From Bacteroidales bacterium (GTDB taxonomy: Bacteria > Bacteroidota > Bacteroidia > Bacteroidales > UBA10428): DNA of 64,000 nt. This document shows positions 821 through 14,141 of the stretch, piece by piece. The notes under the pieces are model-generated. The model made no database searches. It was given only the letters and a program-made list of their open reading frames with translations, and was not told the DNA's origin. Numbering within the stretch: position 1 is the stretch's first letter; the number at the start of each line of letters is the position of its first letter. The stretch lies in contig JAMIIA010000174.1 in NCBI GenBank assembly GCA_035913795.1, positions 50,325 to 114,324 of the forward strand, in the 5' to 3' direction. The position numbers were made by a program, and so were the translations under genes.

Positions 821-2065
821 ATGAAAACCTTGCAGCTTGTTTTTACAGCCCTTTCGTTTTTTTTGTGGAATATAAGCATCACTGCACAGCCGGTTTGGCA
901 TCTGCAGGATTGTCCGATTGACGAGGAACTTATTTCGGTTTCCTTTATCGATACCCTGAATGGCTGGGTTATCAGCGAAAACGGAGTAGTGCTTCGCACC
1001 CATGATGGCGGTAAGAATTGGGAAATTCAGAACGAATTAACTAATCTTTTCGCCACTAAAATTTTCTTCATCAATGAGAACATTGGCTGGATTTCCGGTT
1101 ACCGTTCAGACAGGGAATACGGTAGGCTTTTATACACCAACGATTCTGGCGAAAACTGGACAAGCCGCGTCGACAGCAATAGAATTCTTTACAACGATGT
1201 ATTTTTTGCCAACGAAAATATTGGTTGGGCAGCAGGCTATCACAATTTGGACGATACCATCAATTATATTATGGTAACCGAAGATGGCGGAAACCACTGG
1301 AAGCGGCAAATGGAAGATCACTTTCTGAGCGGAGCCATGCTCAATATCAGTTTCCGCGATTCGCTGGATGGAAATATCTGTGGAACGGGTGGTTTTTTTC
1401 TTCTTACTTCTGACATGGGCGAACACTGGTGGATGAGCATTTTTCCCTGGGGAATTGACCTTAAGGATGTGTACAATGCAGGAGATCGGTATGGTTGCAT
1501 GGTAGGTTCTGGCGGTCTGGTTTATTTTACAAAAGATAAGTGGGCAAATTCAACAGATTATGAGCTACCCTTTGATGATACCCTAAGAGCAATTTCAGGC
1601 CTTGAGAATTTAAAATTCTGGGCAGTTGGCGATAATGGATCCATTGTTTACATGGCTTATTCGCCTATTTTGTATATGCTTATTACGAGCGACCAAAGTG
1701 TCGATACCCTTGGGCGCCTGAACGATGTGGTTGCTATAGATGATAACCATGTTTGGGCAGTGGGGGAGACGGGCACTATTTTGCATTTTGGAATTAAAAG
1801 CACTGGTGAACCCATAGGTTTGAAAGATTTGCCAGAATTGGCTTATGCTGTTTTTCCTAACCCAACCGAAAATTGGTTGTTTATTGAAGGCAATTTCTTC
1901 GGCTTTGGCGAGGCTGCATTTTTTAATATGGAAGGAAAACTAGTATATAAGGTTAAGCTTTCTATTCCGGGCTCTTTAGACATAAGCCAGCTTAAAAGTG
2001 GCATGTATATAATGGAATTGCGAAATGACCAGAATAATTTTTATGATTTAATAATTAAGAAATAG
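821..2065 (+). CDS. YCF48/BNR-repeat beta-propeller protein with T9SS C-terminal domain
   Basis: Signal peptide; repeats of F.....GW...T.DGG..W; C-terminal VFPNP...LKSGMYIMEL. Confidence 0.85.
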   Translation: MKTLQLVFTALSFFLWNISITAQPVWHLQDCPIDEELISVSFIDTLNGWVISENGVVLRTHDGGKNWEIQNELTNLFATKIFFINENIGWISGYRSDREYGRLLYTNDSGENWTSRVDSNRILYNDVFFANENIGWAAGYHNLDDTINYIMVTEDGGNHWKRQMEDHFLSGAMLNISFRDSLDGNICGTGGFFLLTSDMGEHWWMSIFPWGIDLKDVYNAGDRYGCMVGSGGLVYFTKDKWANSTDYELPFDDTLRAISGLENLKFWAVGDNGSIVYMAYSPILYMLITSDQSVDTLGRLNDVVAIDDNHVWAVGETGTILHFGIKSTGEPIGLKDLPELAYAVFPNPTENWLFIEGNFFGFGEAAFFNMEGKLVYKVKLSIPGSLDISQLKSGMYIMELRNDQNNFYDLIIKK

Positions 2066-2165
2066 GGCACTGAGATTTTGCAGGCTGGTTGATGTAATTG
2101 AGCTGGAATAGCTGTTATTTTTTTCCTTGCTTGTGTTTGCATGTTTTGGATGAACATTCGGAAGA

Positions 2166-2468
2166 TCAAATCGAAATGGTGATATTGACGAATTTGTCGA
2201 TATCAAGGTCTTCTTCTCGCCTTATCTCAGCTTTGAGGGGCAATAGATAAGTATTCATTTTCGTGTCAAACCAAAGGTTTGTTTCCCACTCGTTTGTATT
2301 AATTTTTGCACTTGTTTTTAAACGTCCCCAACCTTCTTCTTGCCATTTTAGATTTTCTCTAATCTCTTTTGAAATTTCTGGCGGAAGCGAAACAAAATAC
2401 CAACCTCCTTTTGGGGACGAATATCTCCAAATGGTGGCAGTGAATTGATATTCTATTTTACCCTTCAT
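2166..2468 (-). CDS. DUF1905-family protein
   Basis: FTATIW..GGWYFVSLP, GWGRLKTSAKIN..WETNLW, YLLPLKAEIR. Start set at MKGKIEY; the ORF track extends to 2519. Confidence 0.75.
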   Translation of the reverse strand: MKGKIEYQFTATIWRYSSPKGGWYFVSLPPEISKEIRENLKWQEEGWGRLKTSAKINTNEWETNLWFDTKMNTYLLPLKAEIRREEDLDIDKFVNITISI

Positions 2469-2682
2469 AATCGGAACCGTTTTGTTTTTTTCGATGGCAA
2501 CCAAAGGTTTTTTGTGCAATACTTGCGGTGCTAGTGCGCAGTACTATGCCATAAATATACTCCAATTTTTAGCGCTGAAAAAGTCGGGCAAGAAAATGCC
2601 CTGTTAATGATGGATTGTTTCGCATGCAATCGCTCGAACAACCGTGAATAAAGGAAAGTAAGCTGGCATAAACTCCAATGGT

Positions 2683-2700
2683 TTATACACCGTGTTGGGT
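2683..2700 (-). repeat. attC-like half-site (R''/L'' arm) downstream of the zf-TFIIB gene
   Basis: Minus strand reads ACCCAAC-acggt-GTATAA, the same AAC-5 nt-GTATAA layout as the site at 5120-5251. No well-matching partner arm is adjacent. Confidence 0.45.
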
Positions 2701-2778
2701 TTTTTGCTTAATTTCTGGCTCGGGTAGTTTAAAAGCTTCTATTCTTTAACTTAAGAAGATGTAACCCATGCCTTTGTA

Positions 2779-3024
2779 TTAAAAATCAAACAACTCCCCC
2801 AATAATCCTTTTTTCTTTTTGTAACGATAGTCATTATCTTTTGGATATTGCTGTTTATTCGCATAACTATCATGTGGCATATTCGTATTTTGTGAAGAAC
2901 GTTCAATAATTTTATCAAGTTCTCCGCGGTCGAGCCATACACCACGACAATCAGGGCAGTAGTCAATTTCTATTCCACTACGGTCCGTCATTACCAGGTT
3001 AACATTACAATTTGGACATTTCAT
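2779..3024 (-). CDS. zf-TFIIB-type zinc-ribbon protein
   Basis: MKCPNC...IEIDYCPDCRGVWLDRGELDKII with C-terminal KKKKGLLGELFDF. Confidence 0.85.
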   Translation of the reverse strand: MKCPNCNVNLVMTDRSGIEIDYCPDCRGVWLDRGELDKIIERSSQNTNMPHDSYANKQQYPKDNDYRYKKKKGLLGELFDF

Positions 3025-3112
3025 TGTTTTAATCCTTTCTTAATTAGTAATCTTTTTTAGGTCTCCAAAAATAGTGTTTGATTAGCATTTTTTTAGGCTT
3101 TCATAAAACTTT

Positions 3113-3235
3113 CCCACGGTATGATGTCATGCGGGGGATTGTGAAGTGATCACCTATCAGTTTACAAGATTTTTTTTTCGATATGTAAGGTCAGCAAACC
3201 GCTGAGTCCCTTTTGCTCGCTAGTATGAGTTAGCC
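3113..3235 (-). repeat. Degenerate or chimeric attC-like site downstream of hipT
   Basis: Minus strand has GGCTAAC 28 bp after the hipT stop. The plus-strand left arm ggtatgatgtcatgcgggggatt resembles ggtatgaggtcatggcggatt of the 5120 site. The two arms do not pair well and the terminal GTT is missing. Confidence 0.5.
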
Positions 3236-3262
3236 GCTGGCTTGTTTTTATGTAACTATTAT

Positions 3263-4198
3263 TTATTTTGGATTTAGTAATTCAATTCTCTTTGAGACTA
3301 GTTTTTTTAACAAGTCCCTTTGTTCAAAGGTTAAAAAAGAGTTATCAATCCACCAGTGAATTTTACCTGAATTGTCGGCAAAAGATTTGTAGCAGTGGTA
3401 TATTTGTTTCTCATTCAATAGCAAATTCGAACCTAAATTATCAAAGTCTTTTTTGGAAAGTTCATTTTTCTTTCCATTTAAATTCAAACTCATTTGCTCG
3501 GGTTCGTTCTTTATTGCAAGATAAGTGCTAACCAGGTCGTAAGCAGGACTAAGACTAAATGTACCGTCTTCTCTTTCAAGCATTGAAAAATTTTTCAAGT
3601 GCATATCTGCATTCCCTGTAATGAAACTAAACAGAACAAGTTGATAATACCGTAACATATCCAGACCTGGTTGAGTTGAAAATTGCCTTATAGTTTTGCC
3701 CGCTTTCTCATAACTTCCTCTGTATTTGTGCTCTGTGAGGCTTTCAGAGAGTTGACACAAATCTTCACTTGCTATTTTAGTTGTTTTGTTCCTGTCAAAC
3801 CGCCTTGTAATGTATGCAAGCCTTCCGCTTTTCATTCTTACCAAACCATGTGTCGCTACTTCTATTCCCAATTCTGCTGCAAGGTGCATACATAAGTCCT
3901 CATTTTCTGGCAATGAAATGTATGTTTCACTTTGTGGTTTGATAATGTAGTTGCTTTTATCATCCACAATGGTAAAGCGCATATTTTTCTTGCTTTCTTC
4001 TAACCACAAACTTAGCTTAGGTTGTACTCCGGTTATTGCATTGTTTGCTCCAACAATTCTTTTCGCGTAATCACTTAATTTTTTTTCATCTATATCAAGC
4101 TCTGGCATCTGTTTCAATCCAAAAATATTAGTGATACACCTAATGTGATAATCAACTTCATCTAATGTCAGGGGCTTATAGCAAAGTAAGCAGTTCAT
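3263..4198 (-). CDS. hipT: HipA-family kinase toxin lacking the N-terminal subdomain (HipT-like)
   Basis: Gly-rich loop AITGVQPKLS, YIIKP, ENE, RRFDR, GNADMHLKNFS and LSPAYDL. Third gene of a HTH/HipA-N/kinase trio. Confidence 0.85.
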   Translation of the reverse strand: MNCLLCYKPLTLDEVDYHIRCITNIFGLKQMPELDIDEKKLSDYAKRIVGANNAITGVQPKLSLWLEESKKNMRFTIVDDKSNYIIKPQSETYISLPENEDLCMHLAAELGIEVATHGLVRMKSGRLAYITRRFDRNKTTKIASEDLCQLSESLTEHKYRGSYEKAGKTIRQFSTQPGLDMLRYYQLVLFSFITGNADMHLKNFSMLEREDGTFSLSPAYDLVSTYLAIKNEPEQMSLNLNGKKNELSKKDFDNLGSNLLLNEKQIYHCYKSFADNSGKIHWWIDNSFLTFEQRDLLKKLVSKRIELLNPK

Positions 4199-4202
4199 GT
4201 AT

Positions 4203-4517
4203 TTAGCTTTTTAATATTGATATATCGCCAATACAATCTTTACAAAGTGTCAGCAGTAAACTCATCCTGTCTCTTGGGTTAAGTTTCCAATTATTGATGG
4301 CTATCTGTAATAACCATCCCTCTGGTATCAATCCGTCAAAAAAAGGCAGCATATTTTTGTCTGTAAAAACTTCAGAACGTAACGGTAAAGTCCTACTTAC
4401 TTCTCCATAAAGTGGATTTAGCAGGTAGTCATTATCATATTGAAAAAAATATCCATTTTCATCTTCCCATACTAGTCCTGCCATTTTATCTTTTTTATAA
4501 ACCAATCCTTTTTTCAT
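4203..4517 (-). CDS. hipS: Stand-alone HipA N-terminal domain protein (HipS-like antitoxin)
   Basis: YFFQYD..Y, VSRTLPL and LPFFDGLIPEGWL, which contains the conserved Trp. Confidence 0.85.
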   Translation of the reverse strand: MKKGLVYKKDKMAGLVWEDENGYFFQYDNDYLLNPLYGEVSRTLPLRSEVFTDKNMLPFFDGLIPEGWLLQIAINNWKLNPRDRMSLLLTLCKDCIGDISILKS

Positions 4518-4530
4518 ATAGAAACGTGTT

Positions 4531-4962
4531 TCACTGGTTTTCTATTGATATGATATCTGCATGATTTATTGTTTCCGTTAACCTTTCATCAGGCTTTTGC
4601 TGATATTGTATTGCATTATTGTTCGGAACAAATTTCCATGCAAAAATTTTATTTTCTTTTTTATCAATAATCTCTTTTATAATTATTCCATATCTAGTTA
4701 GCTTGTTGGCAAGAGTAATTTTCACACCTTTATTGAAATAATTCCAGAAAATGTCATAGGCATCAATCCGTTGTTTGTTTGGGGTTAATTGAAATCCAAA
4801 CAAGCGAAGCACTTGTTCTACTTTGTTTAATTGTAGTGTTTCTTTACCTTGCTCCAAGTCACGGATAAAGCGAACGCCAACTCCTGCTTTTAAAGCAAGT
4901 TCTTCTTGGGTAATGCCAAGCTTTTTTCTCTGAAACTTGATAAATGCTGATAAATTATTCAT
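4531..4962 (-). CDS. hipB: HipB/y4mF-type HTH regulator with an extra ~75-aa C-terminal domain
   Basis: RKKLGITQEELALKAGVGVRFIRDLEQGKETLQLNKVEQVL is a Cro/XRE HTH. First gene of the trio. Confidence 0.8.
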   Translation of the reverse strand: MNNLSAFIKFQRKKLGITQEELALKAGVGVRFIRDLEQGKETLQLNKVEQVLRLFGFQLTPNKQRIDAYDIFWNYFNKGVKITLANKLTRYGIIIKEIIDKKENKIFAWKFVPNNNAIQYQQKPDERLTETINHADIISIENQ

Positions 4963-4966
4963 TTTT

Positions 4967-5064
4967 TATACCTTAACGGGTACAAATATAAACATAAATA
5001 ATAAAATAAATCCGTTCGGGTATAAAGTGTTTTAATTTCACTAGTTTCGAACCTTACGGGTATA
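4967..5064 (-). promoter_or_regulatory. hipBST promoter with three 18-bp operator palindromes (consensus TATACCCG-NN-CGGGTATA)
   Basis: TATACCTTAACGGGTACA (4967), TAAATCCGTTCGGGTATA (5007), TCGAACCTTACGGGTATA (5047). Minus-strand -7 box TATATTTG at 4990-4983. Confidence 0.7.
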
Positions 5065-5119
5065 CTTTAAATAAGTATATTTAACACTCATTAGTTTCAA
5101 GTTACCGCAATCTAATTAG

Positions 5120-5251
5120 GCCTAACGGCAAGGCGGTATGAGGTCATGGCGGATTACAGGGCGAATACTTATAAGATTACACCAACTTTAAATGCGAGTA
5201 TCAACCTTTGCACCCTGAAACGCTCGACATGCCTTATACCGATTGTTAGCG
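5120..5251 (-). repeat. attC-like site (132 bp) downstream of the HEPN gene
   Basis: Minus strand: CGCTAAC aatcg GTATAAggcatg ... catgaccTCATAC cgccttgcc GTTAGGC. Imperfect dyad that begins 6 bp after the stop codon and ends in a perfect GTTRRRY. Confidence 0.7.
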
Positions 5252-5257
5252 GCTGAT

Positions 5258-5653
5258 TTAGTTTTTAGAATTAATCATTTTGATTAAAAGTGAATTGAAT
5301 TTCTCAACATTTTCTATCAGAGGGACAACATCATCTTCACTAAAATCAACGTAAACGGAATAATCACTTTCTTGTCTCCAGTCTATCAAACGAGAATATA
5401 ATTTACCATACTCGATATCAATCACATTTGTCTTAACGTATTGTTGAAGAAACTTAGTTTTTAATCCATCATGAGATTTTGCTGTAATACCGTCTTGAAA
5501 AAGAAGAGCATTTATCAGATGAAAACAAGAATAGTATAGTCTATTAACACATGACCGCCATCTCTTATTGTCGGCAAGTAACTGTGCATCTTGAAAAATC
5601 TCCTCAGATCTATCAAGTCGGTACTGAATATAATCCTCTTGCGAACCTATCAT
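5258..5653 (-). CDS. HEPN-domain protein (UPF0332/COG1895-like)
   Basis: A..L......RSCVNRLYYSCFH, KSHDG and WRQESDY. Overlaps the upstream MNT gene by 4 bp. Confidence 0.8.
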   Translation of the reverse strand: MIGSQEDYIQYRLDRSEEIFQDAQLLADNKRWRSCVNRLYYSCFHLINALLFQDGITAKSHDGLKTKFLQQYVKTNVIDIEYGKLYSRLIDWRQESDYSVYVDFSEDDVVPLIENVEKFNSLLIKMINSKN

Positions 5654-5973
5654 GATATCTTAACTCCTTCACGTTTAATATTCTGATATAGCGGAGTATA
5701 AATAAATCTTGATTCCCAATCATCCTTTGAGTAAACTAAAGTAGAAATTGGCTCACCAAGCTCCAACTCTAATTGAAACATCTCGTTCCGATATCTCTCT
5801 TCGACAGATCTATCATATTTTGGCCTATCTATCAGAATTAGCACATCCCAATCAGACTCATCTTTAGCTTGTCCAATTGCATGGGAGCCAAAAATAATCA
5901 CCTCAGCTTTAGGATCTTGATGCTTTATCCTCAAGCCTATCATCTTTGCAATATTTAATTCTCTCGCAGTCAT
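5650..5973 (-). CDS. Minimal nucleotidyltransferase (MNT) antitoxin
   Basis: GS-x10-DWD (FGSHAIGQAKDESDWD) and IKREGV at the C-terminus. Paired with the HEPN gene. Confidence 0.85.
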   Translation of the reverse strand: MTARELNIAKMIGLRIKHQDPKAEVIIFGSHAIGQAKDESDWDVLILIDRPKYDRSVEERYRNEMFQLELELGEPISTLVYSKDDWESRFIYTPLYQNIKREGVKIS

Positions 5974-6023
5974 TGTGTAAATATAATCTTATTATAAATA
6001 GTTCGCAATCCTGCCCCATTTGT

Positions 6024-6153
6024 TGCCAACGCCCCGCAGCTATGCCCTGTGCGGAATTAAAACCGGAATCTGTCCCGCCACCTGCTGATTTTATTAATGC
6101 AGGAAGCTGTTCTAATCCCACGGAAACCGCATTGGGTGTAGGTGCTGTTGTGC
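6024..6153 (-). repeat. attC-like site (130 bp) upstream of the MNT-HEPN cassette
   Basis: Minus strand: GCACAAC agcac CTACACccaatgcgg ... ccgcacaggGCATAG ctgcggggc GTTGGCA, an imperfect dyad. Confidence 0.65.
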
Positions 6154-6264
6154 TCCGTTTTTTTTCATTCAAGCGTCAAAATTCTTTATTAAATCCTGTC
6201 ACAAAAAGAAATCTACTAACTGGATTAGCTAGTAGATTTCAAATTTTTTTGATGTTTTTTCTTA

Positions 6265-6756
6265 CTAAAAATCTCTTGAAGCACAATTCAATGAAGAAGA
6301 ACGGAATTCAATTTTTTTAATATTCAATTTGTCTTTCAACAATTCATAGAATACTGTGCAAAACCATTCGCATGTTGAAGGGCCTGTACTTACTGCTACC
6401 CTACTTTCTGGAAAAGATTTAACCAATTCGTGGTTAAGAGCCTTGGCAGGTGCTCCATATCTATTAGTTGTACCTTTCATTCCTGTTTTCTCATATCCTT
6501 GCAACACTAAATCAAGTAAAGGGTCGCCTTCTTGAAAAATCGTTCCATGATGAAAATTGTCTGCAACTGCCCAAGCTAATTTTTGAGCTTCTTTTACAGG
6601 ATAAGCATAATTGCTTTTATCTAAATCTCCTTCGATTTCGATAGTTAAATATCCTGAGTGTCCGTGAAGATAACTTGCTTCTCCTGCATAATTCATAAAT
6701 CTGTGTGCATATTGGAAATCTAATTTCACAATAGACCTGTACTTGCCGTTTGACAT
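6265..6756 (-). CDS. QueD/6-pyruvoyl-tetrahydropterin-synthase-like T-fold protein with atypical active site
   Basis: FQYAHRF and YLHGHS give the three Zn-binding His; STCE aligns with PTSE. No Cys precedes HGH. Confidence 0.7.
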   Translation of the reverse strand: MSNGKYRSIVKLDFQYAHRFMNYAGEASYLHGHSGYLTIEIEGDLDKSNYAYPVKEAQKLAWAVADNFHHGTIFQEGDPLLDLVLQGYEKTGMKGTTNRYGAPAKALNHELVKSFPESRVAVSTGPSTCEWFCTVFYELLKDKLNIKKIEFRSSSLNCASRDF

Positions 6757-6789
6757 AATATAAACCTCCTATTTTTTAAAAGTGAATAA

Positions 6790-7215
6790 TTAGCATTTAT
6801 TAAAAGTGCCTCTAATTTGAAGAACTATATCTTCAATCTTAAATCCTTCTATATTTTTGTTTTTAAAATGATTATGTAATAATTCATCTAATTCTTCGTC
6901 CTTGTAATCCTCAATTAAATCGCATTCAGAGCAATACAAATGATGGTGATTTTCAATTATACCATCGTATCTCATAACATCTTTATCCGTAGTAACCTTT
7001 TTAATTAGTCCGTTTTCAACAAGTGTATCCAAAACTTTATATACTGTCCCCGTAGCAATATTTGGATGTGACTCTCTGATATACTCAATAATATTATCGG
7101 CAGTCGGATGATTGTTTAATTTATAAATAGCTTCAAGTATAACAACTCGCTGAGGGGTTATCTTTAATCCCTTTTCCGAAAATTTATTCCTTATATTCTC
7201 TATTAAAAACTTCAT
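6790..7215 (-). CDS. Fur-family transcriptional regulator (Fur/PerR-like)
   Basis: GLKITPQR, HPTAD, ATGTVYKVL, RYD and HHHLYCSEC. Confidence 0.9.
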   Translation of the reverse strand: MKFLIENIRNKFSEKGLKITPQRVVILEAIYKLNNHPTADNIIEYIRESHPNIATGTVYKVLDTLVENGLIKKVTTDKDVMRYDGIIENHHHLYCSECDLIEDYKDEELDELLHNHFKNKNIEGFKIEDIVLQIRGTFNKC

Positions 7216-7230
7216 TGAATATTTCCTTAT

Positions 7231-7261
7231 TGAGAATTATTCTCTCATGAGAGCAAATGTA
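7231..7261 (-). promoter_or_regulatory. Fur-box-like 7-1-7 repeat and -7 promoter box of the fur/queD-like operon
   Basis: TGAGAAT-T-ATTCTCT at 7231-7245; minus-strand TACATTTG at 7261-7254. Confidence 0.55.
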
Positions 7262-7597
7262 ATCTAAGTTTTTATATAATCCAATTTTTTATTGAAAATT
7301 TTGCTTTTTGATTTCGCTTCTATCAGGAACGCTGTCTTTTTTTAAAATGGAGCACAACTCAATAATATCAGCAACTTAAAAAAATAAACTACATTAGAAA
7401 ATGTGTTCCTACTATTATGCGGTTTCAGAGGAAGAATGCATTTTTTCCTAAATAAGAGGGATGCTTCAAAGGGTAGCATTTCAGAATGAGATGGGTAGTT
7501 TTTAGCACTGAATTTCGTTTAAATTAAAGAAAGAGAAACAGTGTTTCTATAAGTTATCCCACGCGAAAAGTAAAAATCGATCGTGAAAGATTTTGCA

Positions 7598-8236
7598 TCA
7601 CTGTAATTTCAAACGAGCAGCCATTGCCTCAAGGTCTGATTTCCCCCATGCATAGGGCAGGAATTCATCTTCCGGTTTTTTGGTGCTATTTTCTAATGCC
7701 AGTTGAATGCATTCGCCGGCTTGTTGCCTTCCATACTCTGAATCCGGATATTTTACAAGAAAATACTGCGCCAATACATAGTGAGCGCGGATATTTTTTT
7801 GATCGCCGGCGAGTGCATTTTTCAATAAAAAGGCGCAGTCAAGCAGGGCCACACTGTCGTTGGTATATTGGTATTGATGCAATTTCAGTTTTGCTTCGAG
7901 AATATTGAATTCAACCAAACCACTAAACTTTTTACCACTTTGATCGAAGAAGGTTTGTACTGCATTTAGAACAACGGGCTTATTATTTAAATTCGAGTCT
8001 TCGGTACACTTTAAGGAGGCATAGATATAATAATATGCTGACCTCCAGTCGTTAGGGTTTGTTTCGAATATTCTGTAGAAAAAAACCGAGCTTTGAGTGT
8101 AACCCTTAAGTGTATTCGCAGAATCCAACGATACTATTCCGGCATTTAATTGCTGGGCATACCAATCTTCGGTTTGCCCGCTCAAAGTGGTTTTTAAAAT
8201 CAACAGCAATAAGGCAGCTGTGAATATTTTATTCAT
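7598..8236 (-). CDS. Secreted helical (TPR-like) hypothetical protein
   Basis: Signal peptide MNKIFTAALLLLILK. ATG overlaps the stop region of the upstream gene. The ORF track starts it at 8257. Confidence 0.6.
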   Translation of the reverse strand: MNKIFTAALLLLILKTTLSGQTEDWYAQQLNAGIVSLDSANTLKGYTQSSVFFYRIFETNPNDWRSAYYYIYASLKCTEDSNLNNKPVVLNAVQTFFDQSGKKFSGLVEFNILEAKLKLHQYQYTNDSVALLDCAFLLKNALAGDQKNIRAHYVLAQYFLVKYPDSEYGRQQAGECIQLALENSTKKPEDEFLPYAWGKSDLEAMAARLKLQ

Positions 8237-10940
8237 GTGAAACAATAATTTTCTCATTTTTGGTAAAATCGTTGCTATTAAACTGAATAAAATAGATTCC
8301 GTCTTTTAAGCTTTGTTTTTTCAATCGAAAGCTTAACTCATGCTCGCCGGCTGCGATTGTTCCAGAATAAAAATCTTCCAACTTTTTACCATCAATGGTA
8401 TAAAGCGAAATTAAAACCTCCGATTGCGATTGAAGAAAGCAATGAACCGTAAAATTGTCAGAAACAAATGTCGGATAAATGTGCACCTGTTGCATATTGG
8501 CTTTGTTGTCGTCGATGCCGGTTTCCTCCTGAAAAAGGGCTAAAATTTGATCGTTTTTGTTAATCCTTAAACTATTGTTTGCAATGCTTTCAGATTTTAA
8601 GAACACACTTTCGTTCGATTTCCATTTATAAAATGGTTTATCGAAAGTGGAGGTATCATACGCATTTAGTGCAATATCGATGTTGCCAAAATAGGCAGCA
8701 TTCCAGGGCAAATTTGTAATCTGAAGCGAATTTACATCCAATGCAATGTTTTCTCGTGGTAAGGCGTCGAAGGTGATATTGTAGGGACCAGTGAGGTTGT
8801 AGCAGCTATCCAATTTGTTTTCTGCCCATGCACCGCATCTTCTTGTTACAAAATCTCTTAAGCGATCATAGTTTTTTTCCCATTCTTCATAGCTCCCGCC
8901 AGGCCAGCGTTCGTTATGCCGGTACATTTCGGGTGCAATTAACGCTTTAAGACTGTCGAGCTGGTGCAGCATATTTTCGCAGCTGAAAGTGGTATTGATT
9001 AAATCGATGTATCGCGAAATGTAATAATTATTAAACCCTGGGTTACCACGCAATTTATTGAGAATCTGAATATGCCTCTCCGGATCGGACCATTCGGTCA
9101 AATGATCGACGTTGCAAAAAGCTGCATTTGCTGAGGTGTCGGGTATTCCTGTGTAATTAATATAGAAGGCAAAAGAGGCATCGTTGTCCCAAAGAATATA
9201 GCCCCATTTTTTATGGTCCCCTTCTGGGTTAAGGCCTCTCCACCATCCTGTATTGTATACCAGCCAGTCGGATGACACAGAAATCGAGTGGCCAATTACA
9301 TAATCTGTTAAGCTTTCAACATCTAATTCAGCTGCTACTTTGTCGAAATTACTTTGGTTTGCCATCGAATGGCTGAAAATAAAATCGGTAAGCTCGTACC
9401 AATCTTCAAATGCCTGTTCACCTCCATATTCTGCCCAGGTATATCCCCAGGTTAAAAGGTATTGTATATCATATTTTCCCTGGTTGTAGTAATGCTCGGT
9501 ATAATCATGGTCATCGGGAATTTCTCTTATATCATATACTCCCCAGTAGTTGCCGTTTAAATAAACAACACATTTCGAGGCGGCCCTTACATCAAGTTTC
9601 ATATCTCCCTGCTTGCAAAGGTTTTGGAAATAGGCATCTCTAAGATGAGCGCTTCCCAAATTCGAAATGTTTTGTATGCCATCGGTAGTTGCAGGGTAGT
9701 TGTCGTCGCCGGAGGCACGTAATATGATGCGCTGAAAATTTTTCCTGTCGGAAAGGGTAAAGAGCTTTTCTTTTAACTCTTTGCTATACCCCATTTCGTC
9801 GCGGGCAACAAAATCGAGGCTTCGCTGATCGTTTACCCATGAATCCTGTCCATGCGAATTAAACTCACCATACGAATCGGCAGCTCTTGTTCCGCTGGTA
9901 TCGAAATATTCTATGGTTCCCCACGGACGGGCTTCTTTTAAGCCCATGGCCAAACTATCCAACAGGCTGCCGGAAATGGAAATTACAGGTAAGCTGTGAT
10001 TTTCGCTGATAAAATAAGTGCCGTATTGTATAAATCCAGGAAGAATAGTGGTGTCACTGTCTGCAATTATTGCTTTGAGAATGGTTGTCTTGTCAATGCT
10101 TACCGGCGCCGTATACACATAAGATTGTGTGCCAGGCTCTGAACCATCGACAGAATAATAAATGGTTTCATTCTCAGAAGCTGTGCCTGAAATACTCACT
10201 GCGATGGCACTGCTGTAAAATCCGGCATCGTGACTGAACTTGGGTTTGGGCGAATACTTTATAAACGATTTTTCGTTGCTGTTGGATTTTCCGGCGGTAG
10301 GATTTACAAACACACCCCAGTTTGATACTCCGTCATTTACCCTGCCATACGAACTACAGCCTTTTGTTTTTCGAATATCTATTGCATCAATCAGGTTGCC
10401 ATTCTTATCGGAAAGAAAAATGGTTTCTTTTTTGTCTTTGGTTTGGGTTAACCTAAAATTGGTATGAATGGTATCGTTTTCAATCAGATTTCTTCCACTG
10501 GCAAAAATTATTTTAAATCCTTTGGCAGGAATGGGGCTGCAGGAAGGTATCTGGTACTTGACAAGGTTGGTTTCCTTGTCGCTTAAGTAATAACCAGTTA
10601 TATCAATCGGTTCGTTGCCTGCATTGTATAATTCAATCCAATCTTCCAGTTTACCATAGTTATCGCGACAGGTAACGCAGGTGGAGTCTTCCATGGCATA
10701 CGACCAAACGTAAGGGATTGAATCCATGGTTGAAGAGTCGGCATTGAAAAAATCTTCTGTTTTTAAGTCCCAGATTATAGTCGTATCGTAATCATTCGAA
10801 TCATAAACCGGAAACCAAATTGTGTCATGCACTAAAACAACCCGCTTTATATTTGAACAGGAATACTCGTTAATGACAATTTGCGATTTTAGGTGGACTG
10901 AGATAAGGAAGAAAAGGAAAAGTAGAATTTTGTTTCTCAT
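8229..10940 (-). CDS. CotH-kinase-family protein with lamin-tail domain, Ig/CHB_HEX-like domain and T9SS domain
   Basis: IVINEY...DWIELYN (LTD); PKFSHDAGFY, IYYSVDGSEP; LNGNYWGVYDIRE, ILWDND (CotH); IYPT...GIYFI C-terminus. Confidence 0.85.
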   Translation of the reverse strand: MRNKILLFLFFLISVHLKSQIVINEYSCSNIKRVVLVHDTIWFPVYDSNDYDTTIIWDLKTEDFFNADSSTMDSIPYVWSYAMEDSTCVTCRDNYGKLEDWIELYNAGNEPIDITGYYLSDKETNLVKYQIPSCSPIPAKGFKIIFASGRNLIENDTIHTNFRLTQTKDKKETIFLSDKNGNLIDAIDIRKTKGCSSYGRVNDGVSNWGVFVNPTAGKSNSNEKSFIKYSPKPKFSHDAGFYSSAIAVSISGTASENETIYYSVDGSEPGTQSYVYTAPVSIDKTTILKAIIADSDTTILPGFIQYGTYFISENHSLPVISISGSLLDSLAMGLKEARPWGTIEYFDTSGTRAADSYGEFNSHGQDSWVNDQRSLDFVARDEMGYSKELKEKLFTLSDRKNFQRIILRASGDDNYPATTDGIQNISNLGSAHLRDAYFQNLCKQGDMKLDVRAASKCVVYLNGNYWGVYDIREIPDDHDYTEHYYNQGKYDIQYLLTWGYTWAEYGGEQAFEDWYELTDFIFSHSMANQSNFDKVAAELDVESLTDYVIGHSISVSSDWLVYNTGWWRGLNPEGDHKKWGYILWDNDASFAFYINYTGIPDTSANAAFCNVDHLTEWSDPERHIQILNKLRGNPGFNNYYISRYIDLINTTFSCENMLHQLDSLKALIAPEMYRHNERWPGGSYEEWEKNYDRLRDFVTRRCGAWAENKLDSCYNLTGPYNITFDALPRENIALDVNSLQITNLPWNAAYFGNIDIALNAYDTSTFDKPFYKWKSNESVFLKSESIANNSLRINKNDQILALFQEETGIDDNKANMQQVHIYPTFVSDNFTVHCFLQSQSEVLISLYTIDGKKLEDFYSGTIAAGEHELSFRLKKQSLKDGIYFIQFNSNDFTKNEKIIVSHE

Positions 10941-11276
10941 TTAAATAGGGTTATGCTTTTAGTAAGAATAGATGACTGAAACGAACAATGGTTGCGTTAA
11001 GGAGCGTTTTTTTTCAAAAGTATTGATTTTATAACAAAATAAACCCTGCCATTTTTTAGTAAGGCGGCACGATTTTAACCAAAGAATATTCGCGATCGAA
11101 TAGGCTTCAACATAAATATTTGTATTTTTCTGTACCCGGGCTTTGGGTGTTTAAGTAAGGTAAATCAGGCAGAAATACCATACTTGTGTATATGATTTTT
11201 ATTCTTGCATGCCAACAATTTCTGGCTTTAAGCTACCTTTATACAGCCAGCAGAAATTTTTCTGGGTTCAATAGGT

Positions 11277-14141
11277 ATGAAAAAGTTTTATCTGAAAATA
11301 ATACTTCCTACAATCCTCACCATTTTATTGTTTATTCTAACGATATTCTTAATCATTATCCCTCGTTTCCAGCAGAATATCATGAACGGAAAGCGGGAAA
11401 TGATACAAGAGCTTACCAACTCGGCGTGGAGCATACTGTCGGAGTTTGAAACCGACGAGCGAAATGGACTACTTACACGCGAAGAGGCCCAGAAAATTGC
11501 AATTTCGAGAATACAGTATTTACGCTATGGCGATGAAGGCAAAGATTATTTTTGGATAACCGATACCTTTCCAAATATGATCATGCATCCGTTCAGGTCC
11601 GACCTCAATGGGAAGGACTTATCGGATTTTACCGACCCGCATGGTAAGAGGTTATTTGTAGAATGTGTCGAAACAGTTAAAAAATCGGAACATGGTTATG
11701 TAAACTACATGTGGCAATGGAAAGACGACTCGCTCCACATTGTTCCAAAGTTATCGTATGTTAAAATTTTTAAACCCTGGAACTGGGTTGTTGGAACAGG
11801 TATTTATATCGAAGATGTAAAGAAAGAGATTTCGGCCCTTTCCAGAAAATTGCTTTGGATATCGGTTGGCATATCCGTATTAACGGCTTTGCTGCTATTT
11901 TATATTATCAAACAAAGTTTGAACATCGAACACAAACGAATTGAAGCCGAAAAGGATTTAAACGAATCGAAAGAAAAATACCGAACACTTGTAGAAGCAG
12001 CAACCGAAGGTTTGTTGATGCTTGTTGACAGTAAAATCAGCTTTGCCAATGCGGTATTGAGTAGAATGATTGGGTACGAAACAACTGAGCTTATTCACCG
12101 TTCGCTCGATGAAATTATCAGCGAGAACAACAATAAAGATATCATCGATATTTTCTTAAAGAATTCTGTAATTAAAGAGGGGCAATTTGAGCTAAATCTT
12201 AAAAAGAAAAGCGGTGGATTTGTAGAAGTGCTTGTTACCACATCAACCGCCAAATTCTTTGGTAACAGAGTGAATATATTTATTGTGAAAGACATCAGTA
12301 TCGATCGGGGTCAGACTTTTTCCAACCTCGATTATCAAAAGTTGATTGGCACTTTAAACCTGGGGTTTTTTAAAGTAAGAATCGATACAAAAGGTAAAAT
12401 TTTGTTTGCCAACGAAACAGCCATCCGCATTTTTGGATTTGAGAGCTTACACGAACTTTCCGATGTAAATATTCTAAAACTATTTACGGATCCAGAAGAA
12501 AGAAAAAACCTCAGAAAAAGTCTTTTGGCCGAAGGGTATATTAAAAATAAAATTCTTGCTATAAACTCTAAAAACAAAAACAGTTCAATTGTTGCCTTGT
12601 CGCTAGTAGTCGTTGAGAATGAAAATCCTGAGCATATGGTGTGTGATGGAATAATCGAAGACATTACACTAAAAGAAAATGAGAAAACACAGTATAATAA
12701 TCTCATTGCCGATTTAAAATCAACTAGTTTTTTACTGGAGCAAGCCATTAAAAATTACATTATCCCATTTTATTCAGTCGATTCCGATTCGACAATAGGT
12801 GAAGCAGTCAGGATTTTATCGAAACAAAATACCGATTGTTTATTGCTTACAAAAAATGAAAACGACTACATCGGAATAATTTCGAATAACGACATTCAAA
12901 AACGGGTGCTATCCTTAAAACTGAACCTCGAGAATCCTGTTTATTTAATTATGAGTTCCCCTATTGTTTATGTAGGTTGCGATACTCCTGTGATAGATGC
13001 AATTAACCTTTGTGAGGATAAAAAAATAAACCACCTGGTTGTAGTGGATGAAACAAATACCATTACAGGAATATTTAGTACCAAAGCAATCTATAAATAC
13101 TTCACCAACTCACTCTCTCTCTACATCGACAAGGCAGGTAAGGCAGAAACAAACGATGAATTAAGGCAATGCTATAAGGCACATCAGCTATTTATTAAAC
13201 CGCTAATAAACAGCGATATATTTATTAAACATATCACCAATCTTACCTCCTCCTTTTCCGATTCGGTGGTGAAAAGAATTATTGAATTATCGATTCATAA
13301 ACTTGGTAAGCCACCTGTTGATTTTTCTTTTATATGTCTCGGCAGCGAGGGTAGAAGGGAAGAAAGTTTATTTACCGACCAGGACAATGCCATCATTTAC
13401 GAAGATGTTCCGGCAGAAAAAGAAGCTTTGGTAAGCGAATATTTTATTCAACTGGGCGAAATGGTATGCAACTCATTAAACCATGTAGGTTATTCGTATT
13501 GCAAGGGCAATGTGATGGCAAAAAATCCGCAGTGGAACAAACCAATAAGTACCTGGGAAAAGTATTTTACTCACTGGATCATCACCCCTGAGCCACAGAA
13601 TCTGTTGGGTGCAATAATTTTCTTCGACTTCAGAACCGTATATGGCAGCGAAGAATTTGCAGACCGATTAAGGAAAATGATTCATACTTTGATTTCGCAG
13701 CAATCGGTTTTTTTGTACCATCTGGCTTTTAACAGCTTTAATACCAAAACTCAGAATATATCTGGTGGTAACATTTTATCGGATAGTAATGCAGAAATGC
13801 TGGATTTAAAAGGCAGCATTAATCACATTATCATGTTTGCACGGACCTATTCTCTTCAAAATAATATATGGGCCACAAACACAATCGAAAGGTTGGAGGC
13901 ATTAAAATCGAAGCACATTATTGAAAAGAAGACTGTCGATGAAATTATTTTCGTGTACAACTATTTAATGAAACTACGTTTCAAAAACCAGATTAAACTT
14001 TTGGATAACAACTTACCCTTATCGAATGTATTAAATACAAAGGGTTTGATTGATATCGAAATTTCTATTCTAAAAAAACTGCTGTCGCAACTACCAGCCT
14101 ATCAAAACAAACTCAGTATCGATTTTCGAATAAGCACTTAA
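11277..14141 (+). CDS. Membrane protein: TM-sCache_2-TM-PAS-PAS-CBS pair-DUF294 nucleotidyltransferase-DUF294_C
   Basis: YFWITD..MIMHP..DPHGK..VNYMW..PKLSY..PWNWVVGTGIY (Cache); YRTLVE..EG (PAS); IGIISNNDI (CBS); CLGSEGRREESLFTDQDNA and IFFDFR..YG (DUF294). Confidence 0.85.
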   Translation: MKKFYLKIILPTILTILLFILTIFLIIIPRFQQNIMNGKREMIQELTNSAWSILSEFETDERNGLLTREEAQKIAISRIQYLRYGDEGKDYFWITDTFPNMIMHPFRSDLNGKDLSDFTDPHGKRLFVECVETVKKSEHGYVNYMWQWKDDSLHIVPKLSYVKIFKPWNWVVGTGIYIEDVKKEISALSRKLLWISVGISVLTALLLFYIIKQSLNIEHKRIEAEKDLNESKEKYRTLVEAATEGLLMLVDSKISFANAVLSRMIGYETTELIHRSLDEIISENNNKDIIDIFLKNSVIKEGQFELNLKKKSGGFVEVLVTTSTAKFFGNRVNIFIVKDISIDRGQTFSNLDYQKLIGTLNLGFFKVRIDTKGKILFANETAIRIFGFESLHELSDVNILKLFTDPEERKNLRKSLLAEGYIKNKILAINSKNKNSSIVALSLVVVENENPEHMVCDGIIEDITLKENEKTQYNNLIADLKSTSFLLEQAIKNYIIPFYSVDSDSTIGEAVRILSKQNTDCLLLTKNENDYIGIISNNDIQKRVLSLKLNLENPVYLIMSSPIVYVGCDTPVIDAINLCEDKKINHLVVVDETNTITGIFSTKAIYKYFTNSLSLYIDKAGKAETNDELRQCYKAHQLFIKPLINSDIFIKHITNLTSSFSDSVVKRIIELSIHKLGKPPVDFSFICLGSEGRREESLFTDQDNAIIYEDVPAEKEALVSEYFIQLGEMVCNSLNHVGYSYCKGNVMAKNPQWNKPISTWEKYFTHWIITPEPQNLLGAIIFFDFRTVYGSEEFADRLRKMIHTLISQQSVFLYHLAFNSFNTKTQNISGGNILSDSNAEMLDLKGSINHIIMFARTYSLQNNIWATNTIERLEALKSKHIIEKKTVDEIIFVYNYLMKLRFKNQIKLLDNNLPLSNVLNTKGLIDIEISILKKLLSQLPAYQNKLSIDFRIST

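Follow-up and report, generated by a model that had tools for sequence, protein, structure and literature searches.

The window analysed here is a stretch of 64,000 nucleotides from a Bacteroidales bacterium (GenBank assembly GCA_035913795.1, contig JAMIIA010000174.1, positions 50,325 to 114,324 of the forward strand). It carries a cluster of genes that all lie on the minus strand and are interspersed with long imperfect palindromes. In the direction of transcription the order is PTPS-like and Fur-family genes, site 2, a nucleotidyltransferase/HEPN gene pair, site 1, HTH and HipA genes (HipA as two ORFs), a decayed site, a zinc-ribbon ORF, a relic arm and a DUF1905 gene. The array thus has four sites, two of them intact and two decayed, which share one strand and each follow directly on co-oriented genes. 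The features are as follows, with scores given for R1, the covariance model of the site family that is described below.

2499..2700, plus strand: relic site (13.9 bits, E 0.45)
2779..3024, minus strand: zinc-ribbon ORF between the two decayed sites (PF13453)
3103..3235, plus strand: decayed family site downstream of the HipA genes (17.3 bits, E 0.09)
3263..4962, minus strand: cassette from site 1 to the decayed site, with HTH (4531-4962), HipA N-terminal (4203-4517) and HipA C-terminal (3263-4198) ORFs (PF01381, PF13657, PF07804)
5120..5251, plus strand (bottom strand): site 1, intact attC-like site (99 bits, a score to be read knowing that the R1 training set included this site)
5258..5973, minus strand: cassette from site 2 to site 1, with nucleotidyltransferase (5650-5973, PF01909) and HEPN (5258-5653, PF05168) genes, a pair of toxin-antitoxin type
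6024..6153, plus strand (the folding "bottom" strand): site 2, intact attC-like site (44.3 bits, E 2.6e-7, likewise for a member of the training set)
6265..7215, minus strand: PTPS-like (6265-6756) and Fur-family (6790-7215) genes, candidate cassettes upstream of site 2 and inside the variable region

Site 1 lies directly downstream of the adjoining HEPN gene and site 2 directly downstream of the adjoining PTPS-like gene, and the distance between the two sites is 773 nt. Read on the minus strand both have the form AAC-5 nt ... 9 nt-GTT. Site 1, from window position 5251 to 5120, reads CTAAC-aatcg-GTATAAGG...CCTCATAC-cgccttgcc-GTTAGGC and site 2, from 6153 to 6024, reads ACAAC-agcac-CTACACCC...GGGCATAG-ctgcggggc-GTTGGCA. 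This reading confirms the site sequences and the 5/9 arms as described in the initial annotation of the locus, as well as its observation of a further AAC followed by 5 nt near position 2700, which on the minus strand reads CCAAC-acggt-GTATAAAC. The annotation had counted two complete sites, and both are indeed intact, but two decayed sites have to be added. One is the relic to which the arm near 2700 belongs and of which the GTT-side arm alone is kept (approximately 2670-2700, TTTATACACCGTGTTGGGT). In the other, at 3103-3235, erosion has affected the GTT-side arm, and the AAC-side arm (GGTATGATGTCATG) is preserved.

With the sequence RYYYAAC-G ... T-GTTR, the plus strand is what integron nomenclature calls the "bottom" strand; several of its pairs are G.T, which makes its fold better than that of the minus strand. 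On this strand site 1 runs from GCCTAAC-G through a GCAA bulge (5128-5131), a helix, a TATG box (5137-5140) and the loop to TTATA (5234-5238) and GTT (5245-5247). In site 2, TGCCAAC-G precedes a bulge with the sequence CCCC (6032-6035), and a short helix leads on to the CTATG box, a loop that is variable and TGTT (GTT at 6147-6149); the fold of this site leaves 4 against 0 unpaired nucleotides after the G.T pair.

Synteny with a complete genome of the same genus extends up to window position 2468 and resumes at 11278, and the 8.8 kb in between (2469-11277) are variable. In the matching 8.3 kb of the other genome the genes are different, but two family sites are again present on the same strand and again follow co-oriented ORFs. 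Neither the window locus nor this syntenic locus has a recombinase, and no tyrosine recombinase was found on the entire window contig (C174, 127.6 kb). Gene pairs homologous to the nucleotidyltransferase/HEPN pair are present elsewhere in the order with 65-73% identity. A homologue of the zinc-ribbon gene is located at another locus in this same-genus genome; R1 matches flanking it were looked for and none was found, so that the zinc-ribbon gene gives no evidence of cassette transfer. The window array is a recombinase-less cassette cluster with gene turnover between species, partly decayed here, and it fits the description of integrase-less attC arrays (at least two sites within 4 kb) if its sites count as attC. 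Since two of its four sites are decayed and the contig has no tyrosine recombinase, the window copy may be inactive.

The two intact sites belong to a large family. A paralogue of site 1 with 85% identity was found on contig C45 and more copies on contigs C150 and C144, and a stem scan of the paralogue loci located arrays on contigs C109 and C62. From an alignment of 13 sites (A1) made with MAFFT we obtained a consensus fold with compensatory changes in 17 of its 22 pairs, and R1 was built from this alignment. In the source genome R1 has at least 29 matches, spread over more than 15 contigs, to a family of about 130 nt. The sites that follow the co-oriented ORFs of the window measure 130-132 nt and the mode of the family is approximately 131 nt, with variants of 75 nt and of 82-94 nt. 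Of 151 genomes sampled from the order, which represent 149 genera, 104 have family sites, as do 57 of 151 sampled from the phylum. For structural analysis one site from each of 40 genomes was aligned to R1 together with ten array regions (alignment A2), which gave 86 matches, 83 of them distinct. Most sites were collected with R1, a model built from sites of the source genome, and a bias towards its geometry is therefore possible; the model-blind scan reported below offsets this bias within arrays only. A model was needed for collection because an unspecific search of the whole genome for paired arms with AAC ... GTT gave 401 hits against 509 in the reversed sequence and was unusable on its own. 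Rfam, searched with window positions 2000-8000 at E up to 1, gave no match, by which no known RNA family is excluded or confirmed. R1 did not match class 1 arrays, a Chryseobacterium plasmid or the tet(X3) and VEB loci, a silence that says little since the model also encodes the loop sequence.

The spacing between the AAC/GTT ends and the inner boxes is well conserved in the family. The short spacer, from AAC to the box on the 5' side of the minus strand, is 5 nt in 81 of the 83 distinct sites, and the long one measures 8 nt in 61 of them, 7 nt in 13 and 9 nt in 7. Combined as defined in the initial annotation, the spacer pairs are 5/8 in 61 sites, 5/7 in 13 and 5/9 in 7 of the 83. Both window sites have the rarer 9-nt form, and the close paralogue of site 1 has 8 nt. 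A scan blind to the model, which demanded only AAC ... GTT, paired arms and at most 10 unpaired nt on either side, recovered 70 non-overlapping sites in 12 arrays. The surplus of unpaired nucleotides on the AAC arm was +3 in 51 of these, +4 in 6, +2 in 4, 0 in 4 and +1 in one (+2 to +4 in 61 of 70). Constrained folding of 84 sites gave +3 in 41, +2 in 22 and +4 in 8; nine folds with an apparent zero surplus are a parsing artefact caused by a lone pair inside the bulge and are really +3. The conserved form is 5/8, an asymmetry of 3 nt, and 5/9 is a minority. The initial annotation had proposed a conserved 4-nt asymmetry and had staked its 5/9 spacing on larger samples: the asymmetry is conserved, as the blind scan shows, but its norm is 3 nt, and with so few 5/9 sites the literal 5/9 claim falls.

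As a control we used two class 1 integrons on plasmids, reached by protein search, with six attC sites (aadA2, orfF, dfrA12, aac(6')-Ib4, blaVIM-2 and aac(6')-Il). Visual inspection gives AAC-6 nt-box ... box-5 nt-GTT for every one of them, hence spacers of 5/6. The algorithm applied to the family gave a surplus of +1 in six out of six, and on the GTT arm each carries an additional base following 3 bp. The published rule for classical attC is an unpaired central spacer of 5-6 nt per arm (PMC5027507). The initial annotation had called the geometry non-canonical, and this holds against a comparison made up of the six class 1 sites and the one published statement: spacers are 5 and 8 nt (7-9) in the family against 5 and 6 in classical sites.

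The stem is supported by covariation. In A2, whose fitting to R1 favours the structure, paired combinations occupy 94.3% of pair cells. Double changes are found in 455 cells against 147 in shuffles, with none of 500 shuffles reaching 455. The covariation score is 0.63 against 0.06-0.12 when the partners are slid, and these slid controls and the fold of the MAFFT-based A1 agree with the structure. Spacer-length conservation and covariation, which the initial annotation had suggested looking for in homologous sites, are thus both present in the collected sites. Four pairs beside the bulge (columns 14-17 with 176-180) show four pair types each, which makes the inner part of both "spacers" a helix: 4-5 nt of each, beside the GTATGA/TTATAC box, pair mutually. 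The unpaired region is a one-sided bulge of 3-4 nt (about 4) on the AAC arm, with 0-1 nt opposite. What had been taken for spacers on both arms is therefore partly a covarying helix, and the true unpaired part is the one-sided bulge.

In the consensus of the bottom strand AAC-G is followed by about 4 unpaired nt (mostly GTTG), a 4-bp variable helix and TATG paired with TTATA; further in come three variable pairs, an optional T bulge and CGT paired with ATG. Three positions are occupied by a G.T pair, in 81, 74 and 83 of the 83 distinct sites. Only 9 of 86 sites have an additional G on the GTT arm to match the extrahelical G of classical attC. The sole other recurrent extra base is the T of the optional bulge, found in 26 of 86 sites on the arm opposite the GTT arm. 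The bottom strand is the more stable one in 74 of 84 sites, with means of -21.0 and -18.2 kcal/mol and thus a difference of 2.8, next to a published bottom-versus-top difference of 2.12 for 263 attC sites (PMC5027507). When compared with the motif RYYYAAC ... GTTRRRY, YAAC and GTTR are invariant or nearly so and the outer three positions fit poorly, with A commonest at the third where Y is expected.

These sites have much in common with classical attC sites such as those of class 1 cassettes and the Vibrio VCR. They are imperfect palindromes at the 3' end of cassettes with the ends YAAC ... GTTR, have a G after AAC and a T before GTT, fold better on the bottom than on the top strand and carry a crossover footprint at G|TT. 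Their length of about 130 nt is that of the VCR and lies within the classical range of 57-141 nt. The centre of the hairpin is different, a one-sided bulge of approximately 4 nt beside a covarying helix in the family and a two-sided bubble of 5-6 nt in classical attC. The extrahelical G of attC, which has been called absolutely conserved (PMC2727003), is missing from approximately 90% of family sites. The family has a conserved box (TATG/TTATA) and three G.T pairs that hardly vary, and its loop sequence is conserved across a phylum. Classical attC arrays were looked for at IntI-like loci by stem scan and self-similarity, which gave none that was clear, GC-rich loci yielding noise. A resemblance also exists to Xer/dif and pdif modules, in that the recombinase discussed below is most Xer-like (NF040815, XerA) and the sites bound modules with toxin-antitoxin genes, but dif-like sites are 28-bp duplexes whereas the family consists of 130-nt hairpins with strand-specific wobbles.

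Integron-like recombination would leave a trace at cassette boundaries. If a circle enters by crossover at G|TT, the R' tail travels with the next cassette and should match that cassette's own R''. For 47 neighbouring site pairs from 13 loci we compared the four nucleotides that follow GTT with the four that precede AAC in the upstream site. On average 3.34 of the 4 positions are complementary, and in 35 pairs all of them are. The controls gave 1.83 for the site's own arm, 1.51 for the other neighbour and 1.49 for random arms. Class 1 arrays read by hand show the footprint likewise (4/4, 3/4, 4/4 and 4/4). Within the window, also read by hand, the pair of site 2 and site 1 scores 2/4 either way and is uninformative, while the decayed site at 3103-3235 matches site 1 at 3/4 against 0-1 for its own arm, which is suggestive. 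The footprint is consistent with cutting within AAC/GTT. As a pattern read from sequence it is the strongest evidence here that the sites have been used as integron-like recombination sites, and it would mark past events rather than present activity.

Which enzyme might act on these sites? In the source genome no protein reaches the integron-integrase cut-off. Contig C109 encodes a 355-aa Xer/IntI-like recombinase (3268-4335, minus strand), and downstream of it in the same direction follow an ORF with a site at 2363-2489, a peptidase S41 ORF with a site at 1105-1235 and a short ORF-less stretch with a site at 673-828. The protein scores 233.8 bits with NF040815 (XerA-type), over the cut-off, and 216.9 bits with TIGR02249, under that model's cut-off of 265 and with model positions 181-238 unmatched. 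Its identity to IntI1 is 28.9% over residues 81-352, and its nearest relatives in public genomes are from Bacteroidota (35-42% identity). When the recombinase and its relatives are aligned with IntI1, both insertions, that of helix I2 (approximately 25-31 aa) and another of about 10 aa, are absent. The helix I2 insertion is conserved within IntI, and extrahelical bases are specifically recognised by the integrase (PMC2095811). The recombinase has an extra N-terminal module of about 45 residues, present in one to three copies among relatives, and Pfam detects SAM-like and catalytic domains only. In common with integron integrases (IntI1, VchIntIA; TIGR02249) it is a tyrosine recombinase, with IntI and Xer as its closest families, and it heads a cassette array. 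It departs from IntI in having neither insertion, in scoring below the family cut-off, in its N-terminal module and in the orientation of its gene, which is that of the cassettes. Integrons with a co-oriented or "inverted" integrase, transcribed in the direction of the cassettes, are known for example from Treponema denticola, where the enzymes are described as true IntI with the insertion. Co-orientation of recombinase and cassettes would be common to both systems, and the insertion would set the Treponema type apart.

The arrangement seen on contig C109 recurs. Co-oriented recombinase-then-array loci number about 15 (C109, L020, L018, L014, L095, L144, L147, G001, G123, G102, G080, G128, G097 (C26), G029 and G049), which bears out the divergent recombinase predicted by the initial annotation: it is Xer/IntI-like, without the IntI insertion, and heads the arrays on C109 and at about 14 other loci. 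In L020, L018, L014 and a Fulvitalea plasmid the sites lie 1-3 kb downstream of the recombinase on the opposite strand, and in G029 they reach at least 43 kb from the recombinase gene. In the sample from the order, sites are present in 69 of 75 genomes that have the recombinase (E up to 1e-40) and in 35 of 76 that do not, counts to which no test statistic is attached because the genomes, although from different genera, are related. A shorter subfamily of 300-aa recombinases, of which one genome (G115) has 13 copies and which is also found in G097, has a different layout, with a site just upstream of the gene.

We considered whether the sites might be ordinary attC of a decayed classical integron, in which case their spacing would lie within the tolerance of IntI and be functionally meaningless. 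The YAAC/GTTR ends, the G after AAC and the T before GTT, the stabler bottom strand and the boundary footprint are all as in classical sites, and IntI enzymes accept very different attC sites (PMC2095811). Yet class 1 sites have a surplus of +1 and most family sites one of +3, the supposedly invariant extrahelical G is rare, the integron-integrase cut-off is reached by no protein of the genome and the recombinase heading the arrays is devoid of the IntI insertion in about 15 loci; an origin of this kind is unlikely. The sites might also be structural repeats without any role in recombination, such as terminators, mRNA-stabilising hairpins or REP-like elements, that merely resemble attC. Their terminator-like position directly after genes, their dispersal over more than 15 contigs and the lack of an Rfam match would suit such elements. 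The invariant G.T pairs are however on the strand opposite the genes, so that a transcript would carry A.C mismatches, and the complementarity between neighbouring sites would go unexplained. The association with a tyrosine recombinase and the difference in gene content at the syntenic locus also speak against this reading, which is very improbable. REP/RAYT and IS200/IS605-type hairpins were set aside because of the length of approximately 130 nt, the AAC/GTT ends and the link to a tyrosine recombinase.

A further alternative accepts the sites as genuine recombination sites and assigns them to another enzyme than the C109 type, either the host Xer or some other one. The 35 genomes that have sites and no such recombinase speak for it, as do the want of a recombinase near the window array and the seven other tyrosine recombinases encoded in the genome. 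Integrase-less arrays are however common for classical integrons too (PMC9024848), sites accompany the recombinase in nearly all genomes that have it, and the position and orientation of recombinase and array are kept across loci where the recombinases share only 35-45% identity. We consider a different enzyme quite unlikely.

Taken together our results indicate that the two window sites probably belong, as recombination sites of the attC type, to an integron-like gene-cassette system with a wide distribution in Bacteroidota, in which the Xer/IntI-like recombinase is the candidate enzyme. The strand opposite the genes, the plus strand of the window, folds into a long hairpin. At its base lies an R box in which YAAC-G pairs with T-GTTR and which includes an invariant G.T pair. 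Next come the one-sided bulge, with about 4 nt unpaired on the AAC arm and 0-1 nt facing them, a covarying helix of 4-5 bp, the conserved TATG over TTATA box with a second invariant G.T, more stem and the conserved loop. A hairpin with such a one-sided bulge gives rise to the spacing of 5 versus 8 nt, here 9, that the initial annotation had noticed. By analogy with integrons, a tyrosine recombinase may bind the folded single strand at the R box and the TATG box and cut within AAC/GTT. The acting recombinase would be the Xer/IntI-like enzyme found at the head of arrays such as that on C109, and we infer from the same analogy that an enzyme of this type, rather than IntI1, acts on the folded bottom strand. 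More speculatively, given an enzyme without the IntI insertion and sites without the extrahelical bases, the bulge and the G.T wobbles, which are A.C mismatches on the other strand, may take the place of extrahelical bases in marking the strand and bending the site.

It is nearly as likely as not, and we propose it tentatively, that Bacteroidota have an integron-like capture lineage of their own. In such a lineage strand choice and synapsis would depend on the bulge, the G.T wobbles and the TATG box with the loop, read by an Xer-like recombinase with its N-terminal module, and not on extrahelical bases and helix I2; the same lineage would also be the source from which tet(X3) and blaVEB were acquired. 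The published surveys consulted report very few integron elements in Bacteroidetes (PMC9024848), and our literature search found no publication describing this Bacteroidota system. Features of this geometry that lend themselves to testing are the three G.T pairs, the spacing of 5/8 and the bulge on the arm that would be cleaved. Integron recombination is a textbook case in which shape and not sequence is recognised, and the parts considered to define it are the extrahelical bases and the insertion of IntI. If our hypothesis were correct, a phylum-wide relative with another stem geometry and lacking both parts would show what is essential to single-strand cassette capture. It would also open up a phylum that surveys report as nearly integron-free, and may explain how some resistance genes of Bacteroidota origin were mobilised.

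The loop of the attC-like hairpin is kept across the phylum in the family sites of Bacteroidota, with the motifs GGATT... and TTACA.CAA.TTTAA in the loop columns of A2, our alignment of these sites to a covariance model (window 5160-5225). In classical integrons no part of the site varies more than the loop. The site length in A2 remains close to 131 nt. The conserved loop may serve as a binding site, for instance for the extra N-terminal module of the recombinase.

Some sites in the genome of the window scored well against the model though their own two arms do not pair:
C150:6337-6466, site with non-pairing arms
C91:9266-9399, site with non-pairing arms
C21:5128-5274, site with non-pairing arms
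C189:31641-31772, site with non-pairing arms
These are either hybrid or decayed sites. Sites of 130 nt and 75 nt are mixed in one array of another genome (G029:C1 498000-537000, loci L140-L141), and there the 75-nt sites have the R box, bulge and TATG box of the 130-nt sites with a minimal loop.

A recombinase subfamily with shorter, 300-aa frames reaches 13 copies in the single genome G115; examples of the subfamily are:
G115:C1 1880131-1881231, shorter recombinase
G097:C18 470599-471645, shorter recombinase
Here the gene is immediately preceded, on its own strand, by a family site, unlike the layout in which the recombinase is followed by an array, and the recombinase with its upstream site is perhaps a mobile unit in its own right.

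Compared with a same-genus genome, the variable region of the window (2469-11277) exceeds its site-bounded part in size, and it also contains a Fur-family gene, a CotH-like protein that bears a type IX secretion signal, and an unassigned 219-aa ORF. HipA (3263-4517) is encoded there by two ORFs with a stop between the domains, and the gene may be either split or broken:
4203-4517, HipA N-terminal domain ORF
3263-4198, HipA C-terminal domain ORF

On contig C109 of the same genome, an rRNA adenine dimethylase ORF (Erm/KsgA-type, PF00398; 161-616, L005) lies on the opposite strand just past the final site of the array, truncated by the contig start. The contexts of erm(F) in environmental Bacteroidales were noted as unexplained in a 2026 paper (PMC13644095).

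Recombinase homologues were also found beside resistance genes on Proteobacterial plasmids:
L098 6064-8233 and L099 6142-7763, recombinase homologue with tet(X3) / blaVEB-3
A truncated homologue (45% identity) lies immediately 5' of tet(X3) on an Acinetobacter indicus plasmid, and another (45% identity) directly precedes blaVEB-3 on a Klebsiella michiganensis plasmid, both co-directional with the resistance gene. Immediately 3' of tet(X3) is a half-site, ...CCCCACTATTGCAAAACTGCTT-GTTAGTA, similar by eye to the GTT-side arm of C62-type sites. The truncated homologues upstream and the half-site after tet(X3) suggest that tet(X3) and blaVEB-3 would originally have been first cassettes of such recombinase-headed platforms.
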